DNA from: an uncultured Rikenella sp.
Lineage (GTDB): Bacteria; Bacteroidota; Bacteroidia; Bacteroidales; VadinHA17
Assembly (NCBI GenBank): GCA_964470815.1
Contig: CAYYEH010000010.1
Coordinates: 1 to 56,684, forward strand
DNA length: 56,684 nt
Reading direction: 5' to 3'
Part shown: positions 9,631-55,048 of the stretch, one piece after another
Numbering within the stretch: position 1 is the first letter of the stretch
How the letters are laid out: every line of letters starts with the position of its first letter
Translations under genes and position numbers: made by a program
Notes under the pieces: generated by a model
Database searches by the model: none
Told to the model about the DNA's origin: nothing
What the model saw: the letters and a program-made list of their open reading frames with translations, nothing else

Positions 9631-10236
9631 TTATTTTTTTGCCTTTTCAGCGTTGTATTTGGCATTCAGCCCTGCAATCACATCGGCAGTCACATCAAGT
9701 GATGTGTCACTGTAAAGGATTGGGCCGGGGAACTGTTTTGCCAGGATGTACTGGAATCCGCGGTCAGCATTGAATTCTGCCAGGTACATGTTTATATACT
9801 CGAGCACCTGCCTCTGAGCCACGAGTGACTCCTCGTTGAGGTTATATGCCATCTCGTCACGCCTTGCCAGCAGTGTCTGCTGCTGCTGCTGAAGTGTCTG
9901 TTCCATCTCAGCGGCAGTGGCCCTGGTGACCAGTCCTTTCTGTACCTTGTTCTGGAAGTCCCTTACATCACGGTCAAATGCCTGCGACTTTGATGCAAGC
10001 TCCGCCTCTGAACTTTTTGTTTTCTCTTCAAGCTCTGTTGCCTTGTCTTTGGCCATATCAAAGTTGGCTATGACTGAATCGAGCTCAACATATGCTATGC
10101 CGCCGTGATTCCTGTTTGCCGCCGCCTCGTTTACGCCGGCCGGCTTGTTCTTTCCGCAGCCTGCCATCATGAGTGCTCCGGCAGCGATAAGAGTTGTAAC
10201 TATCAGGGTGTTCCTTGCAACTGAAATTCTATTCAT
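9631..10236 (-). CDS. OmpH/Skp-like chaperone (lipoprotein-type)
   Basis: Lipobox MAGC, IAYVELDS, helical tentacles, ..DVT..VI.GLN. Confidence 0.85.
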   Translation of the reverse strand: MNRISVARNTLIVTTLIAAGALMMAGCGKNKPAGVNEAAANRNHGGIAYVELDSVIANFDMAKDKATELEEKTKSSEAELASKSQAFDRDVRDFQNKVQKGLVTRATAAEMEQTLQQQQQTLLARRDEMAYNLNEESLVAQRQVLEYINMYLAEFNADRGFQYILAKQFPGPILYSDTSLDVTADVIAGLNAKYNAEKAKK

Positions 10237-10407: not shown

Positions 10408-11409
10408 TCAGAATTCGGGGCAGGGGATTGCGTGGATCTTTCCGCCGCGCTTCACCTGTGAAGAGGTAAAGGAATAAATCAGCGATATCTCATATGCGCC
10501 GCCTGAAGAGGTGATGAGGTTGGAGATGGTAAAATCATAGCTGAGGCCAATATTCAGCTGGTCAGTCTTGATTCCGAGCATCCCGATGATGGCATCGCCT
10601 GCCTGGGCTGACACCTCCTTCGATGTGGCAAAAGGTATTCCCCTGTACCAGACTCCGAAGACCAGGGGGTTCTTGTAGTAATAGAATCCGATGTCAGACT
10701 GGAAAAAATCACCCTGGAACATCACGTTGCCGGCAACAGACAGGACCTCCTCCAGTTTCTTCCTCAGCCTGCCGCGGCTGATGATCTGGAATCCACCGAA
10801 GAGATCGACCTTTACGGGAACTGAGTTATTGTCACCCCAGAAAGATGTTCTGGGCCTGAGGAGATGGTCAACGGTAAAGCCTCCCCATATCTTCTCGTTA
10901 TAAGCCAGCCCTGATACCGCAAAGTCTATGTCAGCAACGTTGTCGAATGGAGGGGGGGTGATTGGAGGAAGTGTTCCTCCGGTTGTAATCTGGCTGTTCC
11001 ATACCAGTTTGGTGAGATCGAGTCCGAGGTAGGTGAATTTAAAATTGACGCCGGGTCTGATATGCCATTCATCATTCAACTGTATATCATACGAATAGAG
11101 TAGCCCGAGATTAGTGGTGCTCAGGTCGCCTGAACCTGCCACATCATAGGTTGCAAGTATTCCGATGCCGGAGTTGAAGTTTGGTACTGCCTTGTCAAAT
11201 GAGACGCTGTAGGTATGGAATACTCCCGGAATTGAAGGCCACTGGTTTCTCCAGTTGAGTGAAAAACGGTAATCCTCCGTGGCTCCTGCAAAGGAAGGAG
11301 CCAGGTAAAGCTGGTTGGCATAGAACTGTGAGAACTGGGGGTCCTGGCCTTTCAGAACGAATGATACTAAAAGCAGCAGGCCTGTCAGATATTTAGCTTT
11401 TAAGGGCAA
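10408..11409 (-). CDS. PorP/SprF-family T9SS membrane protein
   Basis: QDPQFSQFY...L.PSFAG, RNQWP, GLSYDFTIS.L...GG.YEISL. Confidence 0.9.
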   Translation of the reverse strand: MPLKAKYLTGLLLLVSFVLKGQDPQFSQFYANQLYLAPSFAGATEDYRFSLNWRNQWPSIPGVFHTYSVSFDKAVPNFNSGIGILATYDVAGSGDLSTTNLGLLYSYDIQLNDEWHIRPGVNFKFTYLGLDLTKLVWNSQITTGGTLPPITPPPFDNVADIDFAVSGLAYNEKIWGGFTVDHLLRPRTSFWGDNNSVPVKVDLFGGFQIISRGRLRKKLEEVLSVAGNVMFQGDFFQSDIGFYYYKNPLVFGVWYRGIPFATSKEVSAQAGDAIIGMLGIKTDQLNIGLSYDFTISNLITSSGGAYEISLIYSFTSSQVKRGGKIHAIPCPEF

Positions 11410-11541
11410 TCCGGATAAATTTTAGTTACACAAAGTAGCTAATTATACGGCCCAAATTCAGGAAGGTTACATCAAATTATATCAACAATCTGAAGGTAAA
11501 CTGCCCGAGATATCAACAACAGACCCTTAGTATACTAATGA

Positions 11542-12843
11542 TCAATAATTTATAAGCGTCACATCACCTGCCATAATGAATGTCTGGCCATTCCTGTATG
11601 TTCCCCTGACCTTCCACACGTATACACCGGGAGCGCATAGTTCGCCCCTGTAGTATCCGTCCCATCCCAGTTCAATATCATTGCTCTCAAATACAAGCAT
11701 GCCAGCCTTACTGTATATTTTCAGGTTGTATGAGACTATTCCTGAGGCGACGGGGTGAAATACCTGGCTCTCCTCATCGGTGCGCTGGTTGTAATATCCT
11801 CCGGTAGGGCCTCCGCTGTTGGGGACGAAGGCATTGGGGAACCTGATATACAATCCCCTGTCGGTGAAGAGGTCGGTTACGGTCAGTGAGTCTGCACAGC
11901 CATCGGCCGACCAGGCCACGAGTTTAACATCGAAGACACCCATAGACCGGTATTTGTATGACGGGTCAGAGAGGGTGGAGAAGGTTCCGTCTCCGAAGTC
12001 CCACAGGTAATTCACCGCACCGGTGGAGAGGTTATCGAACTGAACCCTGTCACCCTGGTCCCATGAGTCGTCGCGGATCACCTCGAAGGCTGCCTTGGGC
12101 CTGTCCCATACCTCAATCAGTACTGATGCATCTGTTGTGCGGCCCCTGCTGTCGGTTGCTGTGATGGTCACACGATAAGTGCCGGGTATATCAAATATGT
12201 AATCCGGATTTCTGAGTGATGAAGTCCCGCCGTCCCCGAAATTCCAGTTTAACCTGATGCCGTCACCGGCGTTGGTGGTGAAGGTTACGTGCAGCGGGAT
12301 GCATCCGGATGTTACGGATGGTTCAACTGAGAGCGGGTATAAGGGTGAAGTGACGGCAGCTTCTCTTGCGTTGTCGATGGTGCTGACGGAGATTGTTTCC
12401 GAGGCGGATCTGCCGGAGGTGATTACTGATTCACGGCTGACGGTTTCACCGACAGGCGGTGTTGCATGCCCGGACACGCTTTCCGGTACCTGGTCCGGTT
12501 TATTTGCACCTTCTGCCGAATCTGCTTTTACCTGATCCTCCCTCTGGCCGCTGCCGGGGTCAGTGGTTACTGCTTCTGCTGGTACCGGCCGGTTATCCGG
12601 GATGGTTGTTCCGTCATCATTGCCGGTTACGGAGAACAGAATTACACCGGCTGCTGTCAGTCCGGCCATTGCAGCGGTCAGGTAATATATATTGAATCGT
12701 GAGATGTTGAAGCGGAAGAACTCTCTTCGCTCCAGGCGGCGCATAAAACGGCCTGTAAGGTCGCTTCCTGCAACCAGCTCATTCTCCTCCAGCTTGTCGC
12801 GGAAAAGATTTTCAAGACCGTTATCCCTTTCCTCTTCTGTCAT
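11542..12843 (-). CDS. PKD-domain protein with T9SS type-B C-terminal domain and anti-sigma-like N-terminus
   Basis: Two WNFGDG/WDFGDG PKD repeats. CTD: FPNAFVPN...IYSKAG.LVFES...GWDG...GVYVW. N-terminus LENLFRDKLEE followed by a TM helix. Confidence 0.85.
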   Translation of the reverse strand: MTEEERDNGLENLFRDKLEENELVAGSDLTGRFMRRLERREFFRFNISRFNIYYLTAAMAGLTAAGVILFSVTGNDDGTTIPDNRPVPAEAVTTDPGSGQREDQVKADSAEGANKPDQVPESVSGHATPPVGETVSRESVITSGRSASETISVSTIDNAREAAVTSPLYPLSVEPSVTSGCIPLHVTFTTNAGDGIRLNWNFGDGGTSSLRNPDYIFDIPGTYRVTITATDSRGRTTDASVLIEVWDRPKAAFEVIRDDSWDQGDRVQFDNLSTGAVNYLWDFGDGTFSTLSDPSYKYRSMGVFDVKLVAWSADGCADSLTVTDLFTDRGLYIRFPNAFVPNSGGPTGGYYNQRTDEESQVFHPVASGIVSYNLKIYSKAGMLVFESNDIELGWDGYYRGELCAPGVYVWKVRGTYRNGQTFIMAGDVTLINY

Positions 12844-12850
12844 CTTCTTT

Positions 12851-13405
12851 TCAAAAAAATTTCCCCCTGGCGCGCGCCAGGTCTCCGAGTTTTTTTCTGA
12901 GCGCTGCCCTGGCCCTGCTGTATTGTGATTTAGAAGTATTTACGTCAATCCCCAGCATCTCTGCTATTTCATGGTGTTTATACCCCTCGATGGTATAAAG
13001 GTTAAACACCATTCTGTATCCCGGTGAGAGGCCTGCAAGAACACGGTACAGATCCTCCGCGTTGCAGAAGTCCTCCTCAAAGCCGGCAGTTCCCGTCTCG
13101 GTGCTCACGTACTCATCGATGTCAACCTGGTGCTTGTGCTTAAGGTTTCTGTGCCAGTACGTTATGGCGGTGTTTACCGTGACCCTTCTCAACCATGCCC
13201 TGAAAGAACCGGTACCCTCATACTCCCCGAGATTGAAATAAATCTTCAGGAAAGCCTCCTGCAACATATCTTCAGCCTCAGGCCTGTCAGTGGCATATCT
13301 CATGCAGATGCCCAGAAGGTATCCGGAATACTGTTTCCACAGGGCCTGCTGCGCCTTTCTGTTGTGCCTGATACAGCCATCAATGATATGTTGTTCACTC
13401 ATCAT
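12851..13405 (-). CDS. ECF sigma-70 factor
   Basis: AEDMLQEAF, F.AWLRRVTVN, LSPGYRMVFNLY.IEGY.H.EIA..LGI...TSKSQYSRA. ATG 13405 is preferred because TTG 13429 overlaps the predicted -10 element. Confidence 0.92.
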   Translation of the reverse strand: MMSEQHIIDGCIRHNRKAQQALWKQYSGYLLGICMRYATDRPEAEDMLQEAFLKIYFNLGEYEGTGSFRAWLRRVTVNTAITYWHRNLKHKHQVDIDEYVSTETGTAGFEEDFCNAEDLYRVLAGLSPGYRMVFNLYTIEGYKHHEIAEMLGIDVNTSKSQYSRARAALRKKLGDLARARGKFF

Positions 13406-13424
13406 CAGCTGAGCACAGTGAGAA

Positions 13425-13451
13425 GACAATGGATAATAGCAAATGGTTGCA
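13425..13451 (-). promoter_or_regulatory. Putative ECF promoter (autoregulatory)
   Basis: Minus strand TGCAAC-N16-TTGTC, matching the sites at 51872 and 54215. Confidence 0.5.
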
Positions 13452-13509: not shown

Positions 13510-13553
13510 TGATATAGGTCATTGAATCGGAGGGATGTTCAGGCTTACTTTTG
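13510..13553 (+). promoter_or_regulatory. Promoter with Crp/Fnr-like box for the fused oxidoreductase-proDH operon
   Basis: TGATATAGGTCA (13510-21), then 24 nt, then TACTTTTG (13546-53). Confidence 0.6.
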
Positions 13554-13584
13554 AGAACTGAACCAGAATGTGAAAGTGAATTAT

Positions 13585-51919: not shown

Positions 51920-52474
51920 TTGGGCACAGCGGATTTGCACATACATGACAGGCTCATTGAGGAGTGCCGGAGCGGCAGCCGCAGTGCACAGTTCAGGCTG
52001 TATGAGCTTTACTCAAAGGCAATGTACAACACTGCATACCGGATAATGGGCAACAGGGAGGAGGCAGAGGATATGCTGCAGGAGGCGTTTACTGATTGTT
52101 TTACGAAGATAGGGTCATACCGCACTGATTCCACCTTCGGGGCATGGCTCAAGACCATAGTCATCAACCGCTGTATCAGCAGGCTCCGGAAGAGAGAGGC
52201 TGAGCTGGTATATATTGATGATTACAGCCGTCATGAGATTAAGCAGGAGGAACCGCAGGAGCTTGCATGGCCTGACGCCGCGGTAATAGCCAGGGCAGTG
52301 GGGATGCTGCCCGAGGGTTACAGGGTGGTCTTCAGTCTTTACCTGCTTGAAGGGTATGACCATACTGAAATATCACAGATACTGGGTATATCGGAATCAA
52401 CATCCAAAACTCAGTATGCAAGGGCAAAAGAGAAACTTAAAAAGATACTTTCAGAAATGCGAAGCCATGGATGA
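51920..52474 (+). CDS. ECF sigma-70 factor
   Basis: AEDMLQEAF, FGAWLKTIVIN, LPEGYRVVFSLYLLEGYDH.EIS..LGISESTSKTQY.RAK. Confidence 0.93.
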   Translation: MGTADLHIHDRLIEECRSGSRSAQFRLYELYSKAMYNTAYRIMGNREEAEDMLQEAFTDCFTKIGSYRTDSTFGAWLKTIVINRCISRLRKREAELVYIDDYSRHEIKQEEPQELAWPDAAVIARAVGMLPEGYRVVFSLYLLEGYDHTEISQILGISESTSKTQYARAKEKLKKILSEMRSHG

Positions 52475-53117
52475 ACTTGAGAAGCATATCAGGAGCGTCA
52501 GGAACGAGCTTGACATCAACGAACCCTGTCCGGGGCTCTGGAGCAGGATTGAGGCTGGACTGCAAGCTAACGGGGTTGCCGGAACGGCCGGCAACGAGGA
52601 GTCGCCTTTTGCAGGCAGAGAGGGTTCACCGCTTTCCCGCGCGAAGGGCGCATCGAACTCCGGCTGGCAGGAGTCACCAACCGGGCTTCCGGGGAGACAC
52701 AGGAATCTGACCAGGCTGTTGTGGCGCGCTGCAGTGGCAGTGATCATTGCCGGCTCAGCATTTGCAATTATCGCGGGCATGCTGGTTGCCTCCGGGAAGA
52801 TGAATGATCCGCAGGTGACTGAAGTGCGTGAAACATACAGGTACTATGATGACAGGATCAGGGAACTGTACCGCGAAGCCGAACCGCTTCTGACAGCCAA
52901 TCCTGAAATCAGTACCGAACTGACAATGGGGATGAGTGTACTTGACAGCCTGTCAGCCCGGATCATCCGTGATCTTGGTGACAATATCGCCAGCAGCGAA
53001 GTGATAGAAGCACTGATAGTCAATTACAGGCTGCGGATAGAACTCATGGAGGATATGCTCCGGCTGATGAGGGATAATGAGATTGAGGATGAAAAAAACA
53101 ATGGCAATGAACTATAA
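52467..53117 (+). CDS. Putative anti-sigma factor
   Basis: MDELEKHI...LD..EP...LW.RIE, a TM helix and a helical periplasmic part. Overlaps the sigma stop. Confidence 0.75.
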   Translation: MDELEKHIRSVRNELDINEPCPGLWSRIEAGLQANGVAGTAGNEESPFAGREGSPLSRAKGASNSGWQESPTGLPGRHRNLTRLLWRAAVAVIIAGSAFAIIAGMLVASGKMNDPQVTEVRETYRYYDDRIRELYREAEPLLTANPEISTELTMGMSVLDSLSARIIRDLGDNIASSEVIEALIVNYRLRIELMEDMLRLMRDNEIEDEKNNGNEL

Positions 53118-54198
53118 GAATCTGTTACTTCTGGCCCTCCTGCTTCCGGTCTGGATTGGCGTCTCGGGGCAGCAATTCTCCGACAGCAAGACCCTTAGGA
53201 AATCGTTCCGGGCGGGCAGCGATGCCGTGCTGGATGTGACAAACAAATACGGAGACATCCACATTATGCATTCCGGCAGTGACTCCATAACCATTATGGT
53301 TGAGATTACAGCCTCATCAAATACAGGCGACAAGATTAATGCCATGATGTCAGACGTGGATGTAAGCCTCACGATGAACGGTGAGACAGTGAGGGCAGTG
53401 ACCTCGTTCCGGAAGGGTATCACCCCTCTTTTTGAGAGCCTGAAGGGTCTGACGAAGAACCTCATCAACTTCGACTCGAGGCTGAAGATCGATTACCGGA
53501 TCGATTGCCCGCCGAGAACGGTACTGAGAATCAACAACAGCTACGGTGATGTATACATCGGTGACGAAACTCCGGTTCTGGCACTCAGCCTCTCAAACGG
53601 TAACCTCGACGCAGCCGCGGTAGGTAACGTCCAGATGATGGAACTGACCTTTGCAAAGGCCAATGTGAGGAGCATAGGTGAGGGCAAAGTGACATTGTCA
53701 TTCAGCGAACTTCGAACCAGGGAGGCTGGAAAAATAAAACTGGCAACGGTCTCATCAAAGGTCTGGATTGACACTTACAGGACGGTTGACCTTGATTCGA
53801 AGCGTGACGACCTGCACCTGGGAACCGGGGAGGTGATAACTGGTACTGCCTATTTCAGTGACATCATTACTGACCGTCTTACAGGAGAAGTAAACATGTC
53901 AGTCAAATACGGGAACCTGTCATTTGAAAACGTTGACCGAAGCTTCAGACTGATTGACATCCGGTCATCATATGCAGACATTGACATGGCTATGGATGAG
54001 AGGTCAGGCTATGATTTGGAGATCAGGCATACCAATGCGTTTGTCTCGCTCCCGGGAATCACTCCTGTACCTGAGAAAACGGAGATAAGCGCCCAGGAAA
54101 AGCTTTACCTGACCAAAGCAACGGTGGGAAGCGGATATGACCGCTCACAGGTAAGGATTGATGCCACCCGGGGTGAGATAAGGCTGCTTCAGAAGTAG
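53107..54198 (+). CDS. Secreted beta-strand-repeat protein (DUF4097/adhesin-like)
   Basis: Signal peptide, NKYGDI, NSYGDV and KYGNL repeats. Confidence 0.7.
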   Translation: MNYKNLLLLALLLPVWIGVSGQQFSDSKTLRKSFRAGSDAVLDVTNKYGDIHIMHSGSDSITIMVEITASSNTGDKINAMMSDVDVSLTMNGETVRAVTSFRKGITPLFESLKGLTKNLINFDSRLKIDYRIDCPPRTVLRINNSYGDVYIGDETPVLALSLSNGNLDAAAVGNVQMMELTFAKANVRSIGEGKVTLSFSELRTREAGKIKLATVSSKVWIDTYRTVDLDSKRDDLHLGTGEVITGTAYFSDIITDRLTGEVNMSVKYGNLSFENVDRSFRLIDIRSSYADIDMAMDERSGYDLEIRHTNAFVSLPGITPVPEKTEISAQEKLYLTKATVGSGYDRSQVRIDATRGEIRLLQK

Positions 54199-54214
54199 AT
54201 TTTTTTTCAGGAAA

Positions 54215-54240
54215 TGCAACCGATAAAGATTTTTTGTGTC
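54215..54240 (+). promoter_or_regulatory. Putative internal ECF promoter
   Basis: TGCAAC-N15-GTGTC, with the same spacing as 51872. Confidence 0.6.
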
Positions 54241-54271
54241 CTTAGAAAAGAAAAGTAAAAGGAAAAGGAAG

Positions 54272-55048
54272 ATGAAAAGAATTATTCCGGTCATTATCAT
54301 GGCCATGACGATGCTTGCCGCATGCAATATGTTCATAGACTGCATTGACGGTAACGGTGAGATGGAAACTGAGTCAAGGGATGCAGTGCCCTTTACGGCC
54401 ATTGCCAATGAAACCTCATTCCATGTGAATTATATTCAGGGGGATGATTACACAATTACGGTCGAGGCCGAAAGCAATATCCTCCCATTCATTGAGACCC
54501 GAATTACGGGCGGATCACTTGAGGTCAGCACCATCAGGGGTACTCACTGCCTTAATTACACCAGGAAACCGGTTGTTACGGTTACCGCACCCCGTATAAG
54601 TGATGTCGTCAATGCAGGGTCAGGTGACTTTGTTGCAGGGCCTCTAGCAGGCACCGACGTAAAAATAGTCTGCAGCGGGTCAGGTGATATAACCACCGGA
54701 ACCGTGAGCGGCGAGGAGGTGTCAATAGTGATTTCAGGGTCAGGCAACGTCATGACAGAAGAGATAGACGCGATATCAATGAAGGCTACCCTGTCAGGTT
54801 CAGGTGACCTGTCATCGTCAGGCGAGGCAGTCAGCACCAGGTACGTGTTATCCGGATCAGGGTCAGTCTTCTCAAGGTATTTCACAACTGATGCTGCCAT
54901 TATTACGATATCAGGTTCGGGGTCAACCTACGTCACAGTCATTGATCAGCTCGATGCAGTGCTCAGCGGCAGCGGCAATATTTACCTCCTGGGAGACCCG
55001 GATGTAAACCTGACACGCACCGGTTCAGGCAGGGTAATATACCTGTAA
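54272..55048 (+). CDS. Head GIN domain (DUF2807) lipoprotein
   Basis: LAAC lipobox and about 19-aa SGSG repeats. Confidence 0.88.
   Translation: MKRIIPVIIMAMTMLAACNMFIDCIDGNGEMETESRDAVPFTAIANETSFHVNYIQGDDYTITVEAESNILPFIETRITGGSLEVSTIRGTHCLNYTRKPVVTVTAPRISDVVNAGSGDFVAGPLAGTDVKIVCSGSGDITTGTVSGEEVSIVISGSGNVMTEEIDAISMKATLSGSGDLSSSGEAVSTRYVLSGSGSVFSRYFTTDAAIITISGSGSTYVTVIDQLDAVLSGSGNIYLLGDPDVNLTRTGSGRVIYL

Follow-up and report, generated by a model that had tools for sequence, protein, structure and literature searches.

In this study we analysed a three-gene locus in 56,684 nt of DNA from an uncultured Rikenella sp. (Bacteroidales; VadinHA17; assembly GCA_964470815.1, contig CAYYEH010000010.1), the whole stretch being referred to below as the window. 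On the minus strand and in the same orientation, the locus carries the gene for an extracytoplasmic function (ECF) sigma factor (12851-13405), the gene for a protein of 433 residues (11542-12843) and the gene for an outer-membrane barrel of the PorP/SprF family (10408-11409). With a probability of roughly 60%, we read the 433-residue protein as an envelope-spanning anti-sigma factor similar to the Dma (dual membrane-spanning anti-sigma) family, a group of anti-sigma factors of Bacteroidota that are held by a tether between the two membranes (Pardue et al. 2024, PMC10927553). Its attachment to the outer membrane would be made in trans, through the pair formed by PorP and the C-terminal domain (CTD) of the protein, a type-B sorting domain for type IX secretion systems (T9SS). 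The system looks like a T9SS-linked variant of the Dma principle that is undescribed, widespread and unannotated. The sigma factor and the segments of the 433-residue protein are as follows.

12851-13405, minus strand: ECF sigma factor, 184 residues from the ATG at 13405 (Sigma70_r2, r4_2, TIGR02937)
12694-12843, minus strand: cytoplasmic N-terminal module, residues 1-50 of the 433-residue protein, putative sigma-binding segment (conservation, homology)
12628-12690, minus strand: single transmembrane (TM) helix with the N-terminus inside (N-in), residues about 52-72 (hydrophobic stretch IYYLTAAMAGLTAAGVILF; helix predicted at 52-70)
12343-12627, minus strand: disordered periplasmic tether, residues 73-167 (AlphaFold2 (AF2) model, composition, hypervariability)
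11824-12342, minus strand: two PKD domains, residues 168-340 (PKD_4 92.6 bits, PKD 78.3 bits, two stretches each)
11542-11823, minus strand: type-B T9SS CTD, residues 341-433 plus the stop codon (CHU_C, family profile, AF2)

The N-terminal module and its linkage to ECF sigma factors

The 433-residue protein starts with the segment MTEEERDNGLENLFRDKLEENE, its ATG at 12843 lying 7 nt past the stop codon of the sigma gene. Database relatives number more than 1800, and the best 120 are all about 430 residues long, match over the full length and are 50-85% identical; their sources name them merely 'PKD domain-containing' or 'gliding motility-associated C-terminal domain-containing protein'. After alignment of 25 homologues that are only 50-60% identical overall, 17 invariant columns were found within residues 1-55, and residues 75-170 were hypervariable with insertions and deletions. 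When codons 5-55 were compared with those of 8 orthologous loci, 12-19 synonymous-only differences were counted, and amino-acid changes numbered 8-28 (8-17 if only the seven loci with an overall identity of 50-60% are taken), the former equalling or exceeding the latter in 6 of the 8 loci, and 44-50 of 51 linker codons were changed in the same set. The TM helix is preceded by 19 residues with 6 K/R and 2 D/E and followed by 20 residues with 1 and 4, a charge distribution that fits the N-in topology. The conservation of the module, the codon pattern, which points to purifying selection on codons 5-55, and the charge bias together argue that the N-terminal segment is translated, selected as protein and cytoplasmic. 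A true start farther downstream followed by an ordinary signal peptide, which the sequence-only reading that preceded this work had named as the alternative, is ruled out by the N-terminal conservation and by the codon-substitution pattern, codons 5-55 being constrained at the protein level.

In the AF2 model, built on 25 homologues, the module forms helices at residues 3-20 and 29-36, and the predicted TM helix spans residues 52-70; the helix noticed in the sequence-only reading is present at about residues 52-72. No conserved signal-peptidase or other cleavage motif follows it in the homologue alignment, and a cleavable Sec or lipoprotein signal is lacking as judged from the sequence, about 50 conserved, charged and translated residues preceding the helix. 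Beyond the helix the model shows no secondary structure over residues 71-167 (predicted local distance difference test score, pLDDT, about 27); this region is rich in S/T/A/P/G/D/E, is 15% hydrophobic and cannot be aligned between orthologues. A disordered linker had been expected at this place, and it is indeed found, its length being about 97 residues (71-167) and not the proposed length of about 110. For 165 proteins of this general layout ending in a type-B CTD (hereafter CTD-type), the linker length has a floor of 96 residues, with a median of 99 in the family of the window and of 125 in the others. A linker with a length floor but no conserved sequence shows the behaviour expected of a fixed-distance tether, and the combination of a single N-in TM helix with a long disordered periplasmic region, one of the features that define the Dma family, is found in the 433-residue protein.

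The upstream gene encodes an ECF sigma factor that has sigma-70 regions 2 and 4 only (Sigma70_r2, PF04542, 53 bits; r4_2, PF08281, 57 bits; TIGR02937, 96.9 bits against a cut-off of 42.9), the PDB relatives of which are ECF sigmas. A TTG at 13429 is a possible alternative start; orthologues keep GATGATG at 13405. The N-terminal 75 residues of the 433-residue protein have no Pfam relative even at E<=10, and NCBIfam and PDB likewise gave nothing credible, PDB matches of the module to de novo designed TIM barrels being spurious. No known anti-sigma domain (class I, zf-HC2/RsrA-type ASD) was found in the module by the Pfam or PDB search.

In order to follow the spread of the module, a 74-position profile (A3) was built from CTD-type proteins only and was used for an exhaustive search of 1.84 billion representative proteins; to diversify it, 21 short fragments from a word-indexed search with an N-terminal profile had been added, which are uninformative as to architecture. 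At E<=1e-3 the profile matched 586 clusters, 70 of which reached E<=1e-10. After classification by hidden Markov model (HMM), the 100 listed matches of at least 300 residues included 48 outer-membrane beta-barrel proteins, 42 proteins with PKD domains plus a type-B CTD and 6 fusions to PorP, a seventh PorP fusion being identified by Pfam. A Pfam scan of 104 of the longer module matches gave PKD_4 in 41, CHU_C in 34, OMP_b-brl_2 in 39, OMP_b-brl in 26 and PorP_SprF in 6, and OMP_b-brl_2 or OMP_b-brl was recognized in 39 of the 48 barrel-type proteins. In the barrel-type layout, the N-terminal segment and its TM helix are joined by a long disordered region to an OMP_b-brl_2 barrel at the C-terminus, and the Dma family has been defined by exactly this order of parts next to an ECF sigma gene (PMC10927553). 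One barrel-type gene (P0162) shares an overlap with the end of an ECF sigma gene, and another (P0228) has an ECF sigma gene two genes upstream. The module of the window protein is thus homologous to the N-termini of proteins of Dma architecture encoded next to ECF sigmas. Matches of about 475 residues with two modules, checked as possible Dma1, were found to be type-B CTD proteins.

In a survey of gene neighbourhoods, as proposed in the sequence-only reading, an ECF sigma gene was found directly upstream in all of the 18 CTD-type loci examined, from both Bacteroidales and Flavobacteriales, with gaps of 1-16 nt in most, and these loci include families with modules less than 20% identical. Among them is a second, very divergent family in metagenome-assembled genomes (MAGs) of Flavobacteriales (L054, L055, L064, L065, L072 and L076), with proteins of 404-454 residues encoded directly after an ECF sigma gene and with the N-terminus 'DAFERSLK.SLE.FEVPYNSADW..ME'; a TM helix comes next, then a linker of low complexity, and a pair of PKD domains precedes the canonical type-B CTD (SPNGDG...W.GR). 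The N-termini of the two families align in register, with one locus (L010) bridging them. This second family supplies independent evidence. In 4 of the 6 loci of the second family, large cargo genes with PKD, P-domain and CHU_C follow next. When the partner sigmas of the three classes of module protein were compared among themselves, scores of 119-218 bits were obtained, versus 92-113 bits with two control ECF sigmas, and the nearest relative of the window sigma outside its own family is the sigma of a PorP fusion (161 bits, 46% identity; controls, 92-111 bits).

The PorP fusions comprise seven clusters (P0179, P0187, P0193, P0195, P0202, P0215 and P0259), in which one chain holds 2-4 copies of the module and a TM helix, followed by a linker of low complexity that leads to a PorP/SprF barrel; they were missed by phmmer with the single PorP of the window and were recovered by a PorP HMM. 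Both of the fusion genes that were looked up (P0187 and P0193) start 1-5 nt after an ECF sigma gene. At L085 (3439-6513) and L086, the gene after the PorP fusion encodes a lipoprotein of 220 residues, the type-B CTD of which scores 28.6 bits with CHU_C and so exceeds the cut-off. Sigma factor, module with tether, PorP barrel and type-B CTD therefore occur as four parts in two arrangements, with the tether carried either by the CTD partner, as in the window, or by the PorP partner, as at L085. By a Rosetta-stone argument, these two arrangements speak for the PorP-CTD pair as the functional distal end of the anti-sigma factor. No description of the module-PorP-fusion class was found in the literature.

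Many barrel-type and PorP-fusion relatives carry, before the TM helix, 2-8 tandem copies of a motif of about 30 residues (F/L-E..L...E.P....W..[ML]E..L), as seen in P0142, P0161-P0163, P0166, P0190 and others among the module-profile matches; such proteins may hold several sigmas per anti-sigma, or the repeats may form a helical-repeat scaffold. In a Flavobacteriales MAG (L090, 9421-21422), an ECF sigma gene is followed by a two-module CTD-type gene (P0230), a gene for a small secreted protein and a gene for an adhesin of 4634 residues with SprB repeats, PKD and CHU_C, a gene order that hints at regulation of giant gliding-type adhesins by sigma/module systems. Near another two-module gene (P0182), no T9SS gene was found.

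The type-B CTD, PorP and the surrounding DNA

The remaining parts of the locus are as follows.

13424-13451, minus strand: ECF-type promoter-like motif before the sigma gene, TGCAACC-N17-GTCT, putatively autoregulatory
11445-11471, minus strand: ECF-type promoter-like motif before the PorP gene, TGTAACC-N16-GTAT (or N15-CGTAT), putative promoter
10408-11409, minus strand: PorP/SprF-family outer-membrane barrel, 333 residues, presumed partner of the CTD (PF11751, TIGR03519)
9631-10236, minus strand: OmpH/Skp-like periplasmic chaperone, kept downstream of PorP (PF03938 71 bits)

The two PKD domains foreseen from the sequence are present, as indicated by the PKD_4 score and by the AF2 model, in which they form beta-sandwiches with a pLDDT of about 90. 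The C-terminal domain of the model shows four strands after a poorly ordered stretch, which matches the description of type-B CTDs (PMC12618676), and about half of the homologues carry a precomputed PF13585 match. A family CTD HMM made from the last 105 residues matches the C-termini of about 60 large proteins (800-2200 residues; species-representative genomes), the genes of most of which directly precede a PorP gene, and the comparison by hhalign of the family CTD profile with the CTDs of 28 PorP-linked cargo proteins gave a probability of 100% (E 4.9e-43, 97 columns). The type-B CTD is thus genuine, although the sequence of the window itself scores below the curated cut-offs. It is the most conserved part of the 433-residue protein, with dozens of invariant residues.

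The PorP/SprF gene recognized in the sequence-only reading was confirmed above both curated cut-offs (PF11751, 186.3 bits against 22.3; TIGR03519, 204.1 bits against 90.55), and its product begins with MPLKAKYLTGLLLLVSFVLKGQ, which resembles a signal peptide. Type-B CTDs pair specifically with a PorP/SprF-like 14-strand barrel, usually encoded directly downstream, and stay uncleaved and bound to it (PMC12618676, PMC9143113); by analogy with this established biology, the CTD of the window protein would dock onto its PorP. Of 10 loci in the family of the window, 9 have PorP as the gene directly downstream of that for the CTD protein. The order in the close homologue loci is always sigma, 433-residue-type protein, PorP and OmpH, with syntenic flanks (proline dehydrogenase upstream, ThiS and aldehyde:ferredoxin oxidoreductase downstream), which marks these loci as orthologues and not as independent evidence.

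The sequence-only reading had taken the three genes as one operon. The genes and their coordinates stand, and a single operon is unproven, since the 433-residue gene and PorP are separated by 132 nt that contain an ECF-type promoter-like motif of their own, no convincing terminator or structured RNA being found within this gap. The pattern TGYAACC-N16/17-GTMT has just two matches in the 56.7-kb window, one before the sigma gene and one before PorP. Its TGCAACC and GTCT blocks are invariant in 9 orthologous regions upstream of the sigma gene, which have otherwise diverged, and the orthologous gaps before PorP conserve TG(T/C)AACC-N15-CGTAT. In 6 of 9 family loci the PorP-proximal motif keeps its position, which is to be counted as one conserved feature and not as six events, and it precedes none of the 43 PorP genes behind ordinary cargo. 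A kin motif, GCAAC(C/T)-N14-17-CGT(C/T), precedes the sigma genes of other CTD-type, PorP-fusion and barrel-type systems, the sigma starts in the high-GC Flavobacteriales loci being ambiguous for this comparison. Directly before the -35-like TGTAACC of PorP, TTGTTGATAT occurs twice as a direct repeat on the minus strand (11510-11519 and 11479-11488), 31 nt apart; the copies are kept in L001, L003, L005, L006 and L009, with single-base changes in some, and may be a site for an additional regulator.

The nearest PorP outside the family (L018, 60-7990; phmmer 2e-123) follows a gene for a type-B cargo protein of 1968 residues and precedes OmpH, which suggests that the PKD2-CTD plus PorP(-OmpH) cassette of the window derives from a giant-adhesin locus. 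Besides the family loci, three giant-cargo loci (L015, L018 and L068) have OmpH behind PorP; the association of OmpH with PorP is uncertain, as synteny alone may explain it.

On the plus strand, a gene for an Fe-S flavoprotein of 1079 residues starts at 13570, divergent from the sigma start at 13405. A palindromic block between these two genes (13510-13523; AATGAC-N4-TATCA(T), with a TGA-N6-TCA core) is reminiscent of Crp/Fnr-type sites; its AATGAC and TATCA are invariant in 9 of 9 orthologous upstream regions, the surroundings of which have diverged, and it could be a site for a regulator of either divergent gene. At the other end of the window (51920-55048), a second ECF sigma gene (51920-52474) is followed by genes for an anti-sigma-like protein with one TM helix (52467-53117; weak DUF948 match), for a protein of 373 residues without Pfam match and for a DUF2807 'adhesin head GIN domain' protein. 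This group looks like an unrelated sigma/anti-sigma module, and the likeness of the N-terminus of the 433-residue protein to the anti-sigma at 52467, pointed out in the sequence-only reading, is not significant (7.6 bits, E 0.14 among 697 window segments).

Known systems, the proposed mechanism and its competitors

The closest precedent is the Dma family (PMC10927553; PMC13088901). As in the window, Dma proteins are encoded directly after an ECF sigma gene, occur in Bacteroidota only, and combine a short cytoplasmic N-terminus and a single TM helix with a long disordered periplasmic tether to an outer-membrane element. The sigma factors encoded next to Dma genes are of the ECF21 group. The N-terminal 40 residues of Dma1 sufficed as bait to pull down the sigma factor Das1 (PMC10927553), and this bait matches the module of the window in size. 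The Dma feature that the window protein lacks is the C-terminal barrel in the same chain, the tether ending instead in the PKD pair and the type-B CTD. In the window a separate PorP/SprF gene provides the barrel, which is of the 14-strand FadL type, in contrast to the 8-strand OMP_b-brl_2 barrel of Dma.

The distal part of the window protein agrees well with the canonical type-B pairs SprB-SprF, Fjoh_3952-Fjoh_3951 and PG1035-PorP (PMC12618676, PMC9143113), in which PorP/SprF likewise has its gene directly downstream from that of the type-B CTD, and many type-B adhesins carry a PKD passenger as the window protein does. The described T9SS substrates all have cleavable Sec signals (PMC12618676). 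Canonical type-B cargo, with its cleavable Sec or lipoprotein signal, is freed from the inner membrane and crosses the outer membrane by way of SprA/Sov in dependence on its cognate PorP, whereas in the window protein the cytoplasmic module is conserved and the N-in anchor stays uncleaved, and its gene adjoins a sigma gene; known type-B cargo proteins are adhesins and not regulators.

The sequence-only reading had proposed an analogue of TonB-type signalling and had known of no description. In FecI-FecR-FecA signalling, too, an inner-membrane anti-sigma factor of an ECF sigma is informed by an outer-membrane barrel across the periplasm. No FecR or TonB-receptor domain was found in the three window proteins or in their conserved neighbours. 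Unlike Fec, the window system has no TonB box or TonB-dependent transducer, contact would be made via a T9SS sorting domain and a FadL-type PorP barrel, and the part that bridges the distance belongs to the anti-sigma factor, whereas in Fec an N-terminal extension of the receptor reaches down. In PorA/PorXY-SigP of Porphyromonas gingivalis (Yukitake et al. 2020, PMC7712824), a T9SS CTD protein also informs an ECF sigma that controls T9SS-related genes; PorA, however, has a type-A CTD that binds PorV, is neither membrane-anchored nor an anti-sigma factor, and acts via PorXY, a two-component system, instead of sequestering the sigma factor directly (PMC7712824). The analogy to TonB-type systems had thus overlooked Dma as the nearer precedent, but the T9SS-linked version does appear undescribed. 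In the literature covered, which is incomplete, no T9SS- or PorP-linked anti-sigma factor is described; the Dma papers (PMC10927553; PMC13088901) make no mention of T9SS, the type-B CTD papers make none of anti-sigma factors, and text matches to 'PorP' or 'ECF21' in the ECF classification by Casas-Pastor are only Porphyromonas and ECF210-219.

An inner-membrane anti-sigma factor engaging the T9SS had been suggested from the sequence, and the comparative evidence (module homology, sigma linkage and fusions) bears this out as far as an anti-sigma-like, membrane-anchored protein with the distal end of a type-B CTD/PorP system is concerned. We infer the steps beyond this, namely sigma binding, docking of the window CTD onto PorP, any crossing of the outer membrane by the distal end, trigger, proteolysis and regulon. 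Residues 1-50 would hold the sigma factor in the cytoplasm, and the single N-in helix would anchor the protein in the inner membrane. The disordered linker, of at least 96 residues and free of conserved sequence, would cross the periplasm, and the two PKD domains and the uncleaved type-B CTD would dock onto the PorP/SprF-like barrel encoded next door. If this distal attachment changed, the tether or the anchor would be cut by proteolysis and the sigma factor released; candidate triggers are docking that fails or succeeds, a T9SS translocon that engages the protein or pulls on it, and damage to the surface or envelope. The freed sigma factor would then transcribe its own operon and porP from the TGYAACC-N16/17-GTMT promoters, and in other lineages it would probably transcribe giant type-B adhesins.

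Several observations weigh against this reading. A T9SS substrate kept tethered to the inner membrane has no precedent, and its exit from the translocon is hard to see. PorP adjacency is confined to the largely syntenic clade of the window itself, and the other CTD-type systems adjoin giant type-B cargo genes or nothing related to T9SS. The window CTD scores 24.1 against a cut-off of 27 for CHU_C and 16.2 against 35 for TIGR04131; in its family, the canonical 'NGDGxxD' loop is replaced by a longer GGPTGGYYN...VFHP insert, which accounts for the low Pfam score. The module, a putative sigma-binding segment, has no Pfam or PDB relative, and 2-8 tandem copies of the motif are odd for a simple segment that binds one sigma factor each. 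The gap between the group of partner sigmas and the control sigmas is modest, the link to Dma1 (WP_008766767.1) and to Reo of B. fragilis is an analogy of shared architecture and context, and the promoter motif was derived from the same sequences in which it was counted.

A further version, to which we give about one chance in four, treats the protein as a 'sentinel cargo': the CTD would be captured by PorP and the SprA translocon like a substrate with the chain still anchored in the inner membrane, and active secretion, or movement of the PorP-bound end at the surface, would pull the tether, leading to intramembrane proteolysis and sigma release. If this were true, the system would be a direct mechanical read-out of T9SS type-B activity or of surface contact, the expression of PorP and giant adhesins would be coupled to the state of the secretion machine, and in the PorP-fusion systems this device would recur with the other partner bearing the tether.

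Rather unlikely, in our view, is a conventional anti-sigma factor confined to one membrane, with the PKD domains as periplasmic sensor and the CTD and PorP as the leftover of an adhesin locus without signalling role. The cassette is clearly borrowed, as giant type-B cargo proteins have C-termini that share 38-44% identity with the PKD-PKD-CTD part and the nearest PorP outside the family follows the cargo gene of L018 described above, and several CTD-type systems have no PorP nearby. Against a relic, however, the CTD is the most conserved region and is kept in both divergent families, PorP retains its own conserved ECF-type promoter motif, independent module-PorP fusions adjoin a separate type-B CTD partner, and the 96-residue floor of the linker suggests that there is a distance to be spanned.

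We regard as improbable that the protein is ordinary type-B cargo with a long signal-anchor, merely co-regulated by the sigma factor, its N-terminal segment serving export or another cytoplasmic role. The names given by the sources, the lack of a detected known anti-sigma domain and the PorP gene directly downstream, as with normal type-B cargo, would all agree with it. True cargo in similar loci, however, has normal Sec or lipoprotein signals, the module being found only on sigma-linked proteins and being shared with barrel-type proteins of Dma architecture that have nothing of T9SS; in addition, the sigma gene stands directly upstream in 18 of 18 loci of two orders, mostly at 1-16 nt, and no conserved signal-peptidase site follows the helix. 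Least probable is a dual product, in which a second start at Met34, invariant in the family of the window, would give MRRLERREFFRFN and a hydrophobic core, resembling the n-region and h-region of a Sec signal, and hence conventional secreted PKD cargo beside the full-length anti-sigma factor. Against it, residues 1-33 are conserved just as strongly, Leu stands at the equivalent position in several Flavobacteriales-type members, which favours taking the Met for a hydrophobic residue of the helix, and no conserved cleavage site follows the helix.

Meaning for envelope signalling in Bacteroidota

If the reading as a Dma-like anti-sigma factor attached in trans is correct, the Dma principle of an anti-sigma factor that bridges both membranes would no longer be limited to one C-terminal design, the fused 8-strand barrel. 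It would cover a modular family whose shared cytoplasmic module and tether can lead to a barrel, to a PorP barrel or to a T9SS sorting domain fitting into a PorP made from its own gene. ECF signalling would then be tied directly to the type-B branch of T9SS, the regulation and roles of which are poorly known, and the systems would be candidate regulators for giant SprB-like adhesins and PorP shuttles. For the T9SS field, the fate of a CTD-bearing chain that is unable to leave the inner membrane is a puzzle, and tractable carriers of the second family among Flavobacteriia make the system easily testable. Hundreds of regulatory systems of Bacteroidales and Flavobacteriales would, on the same condition, be hidden behind annotations as PKD or gliding-motility proteins.

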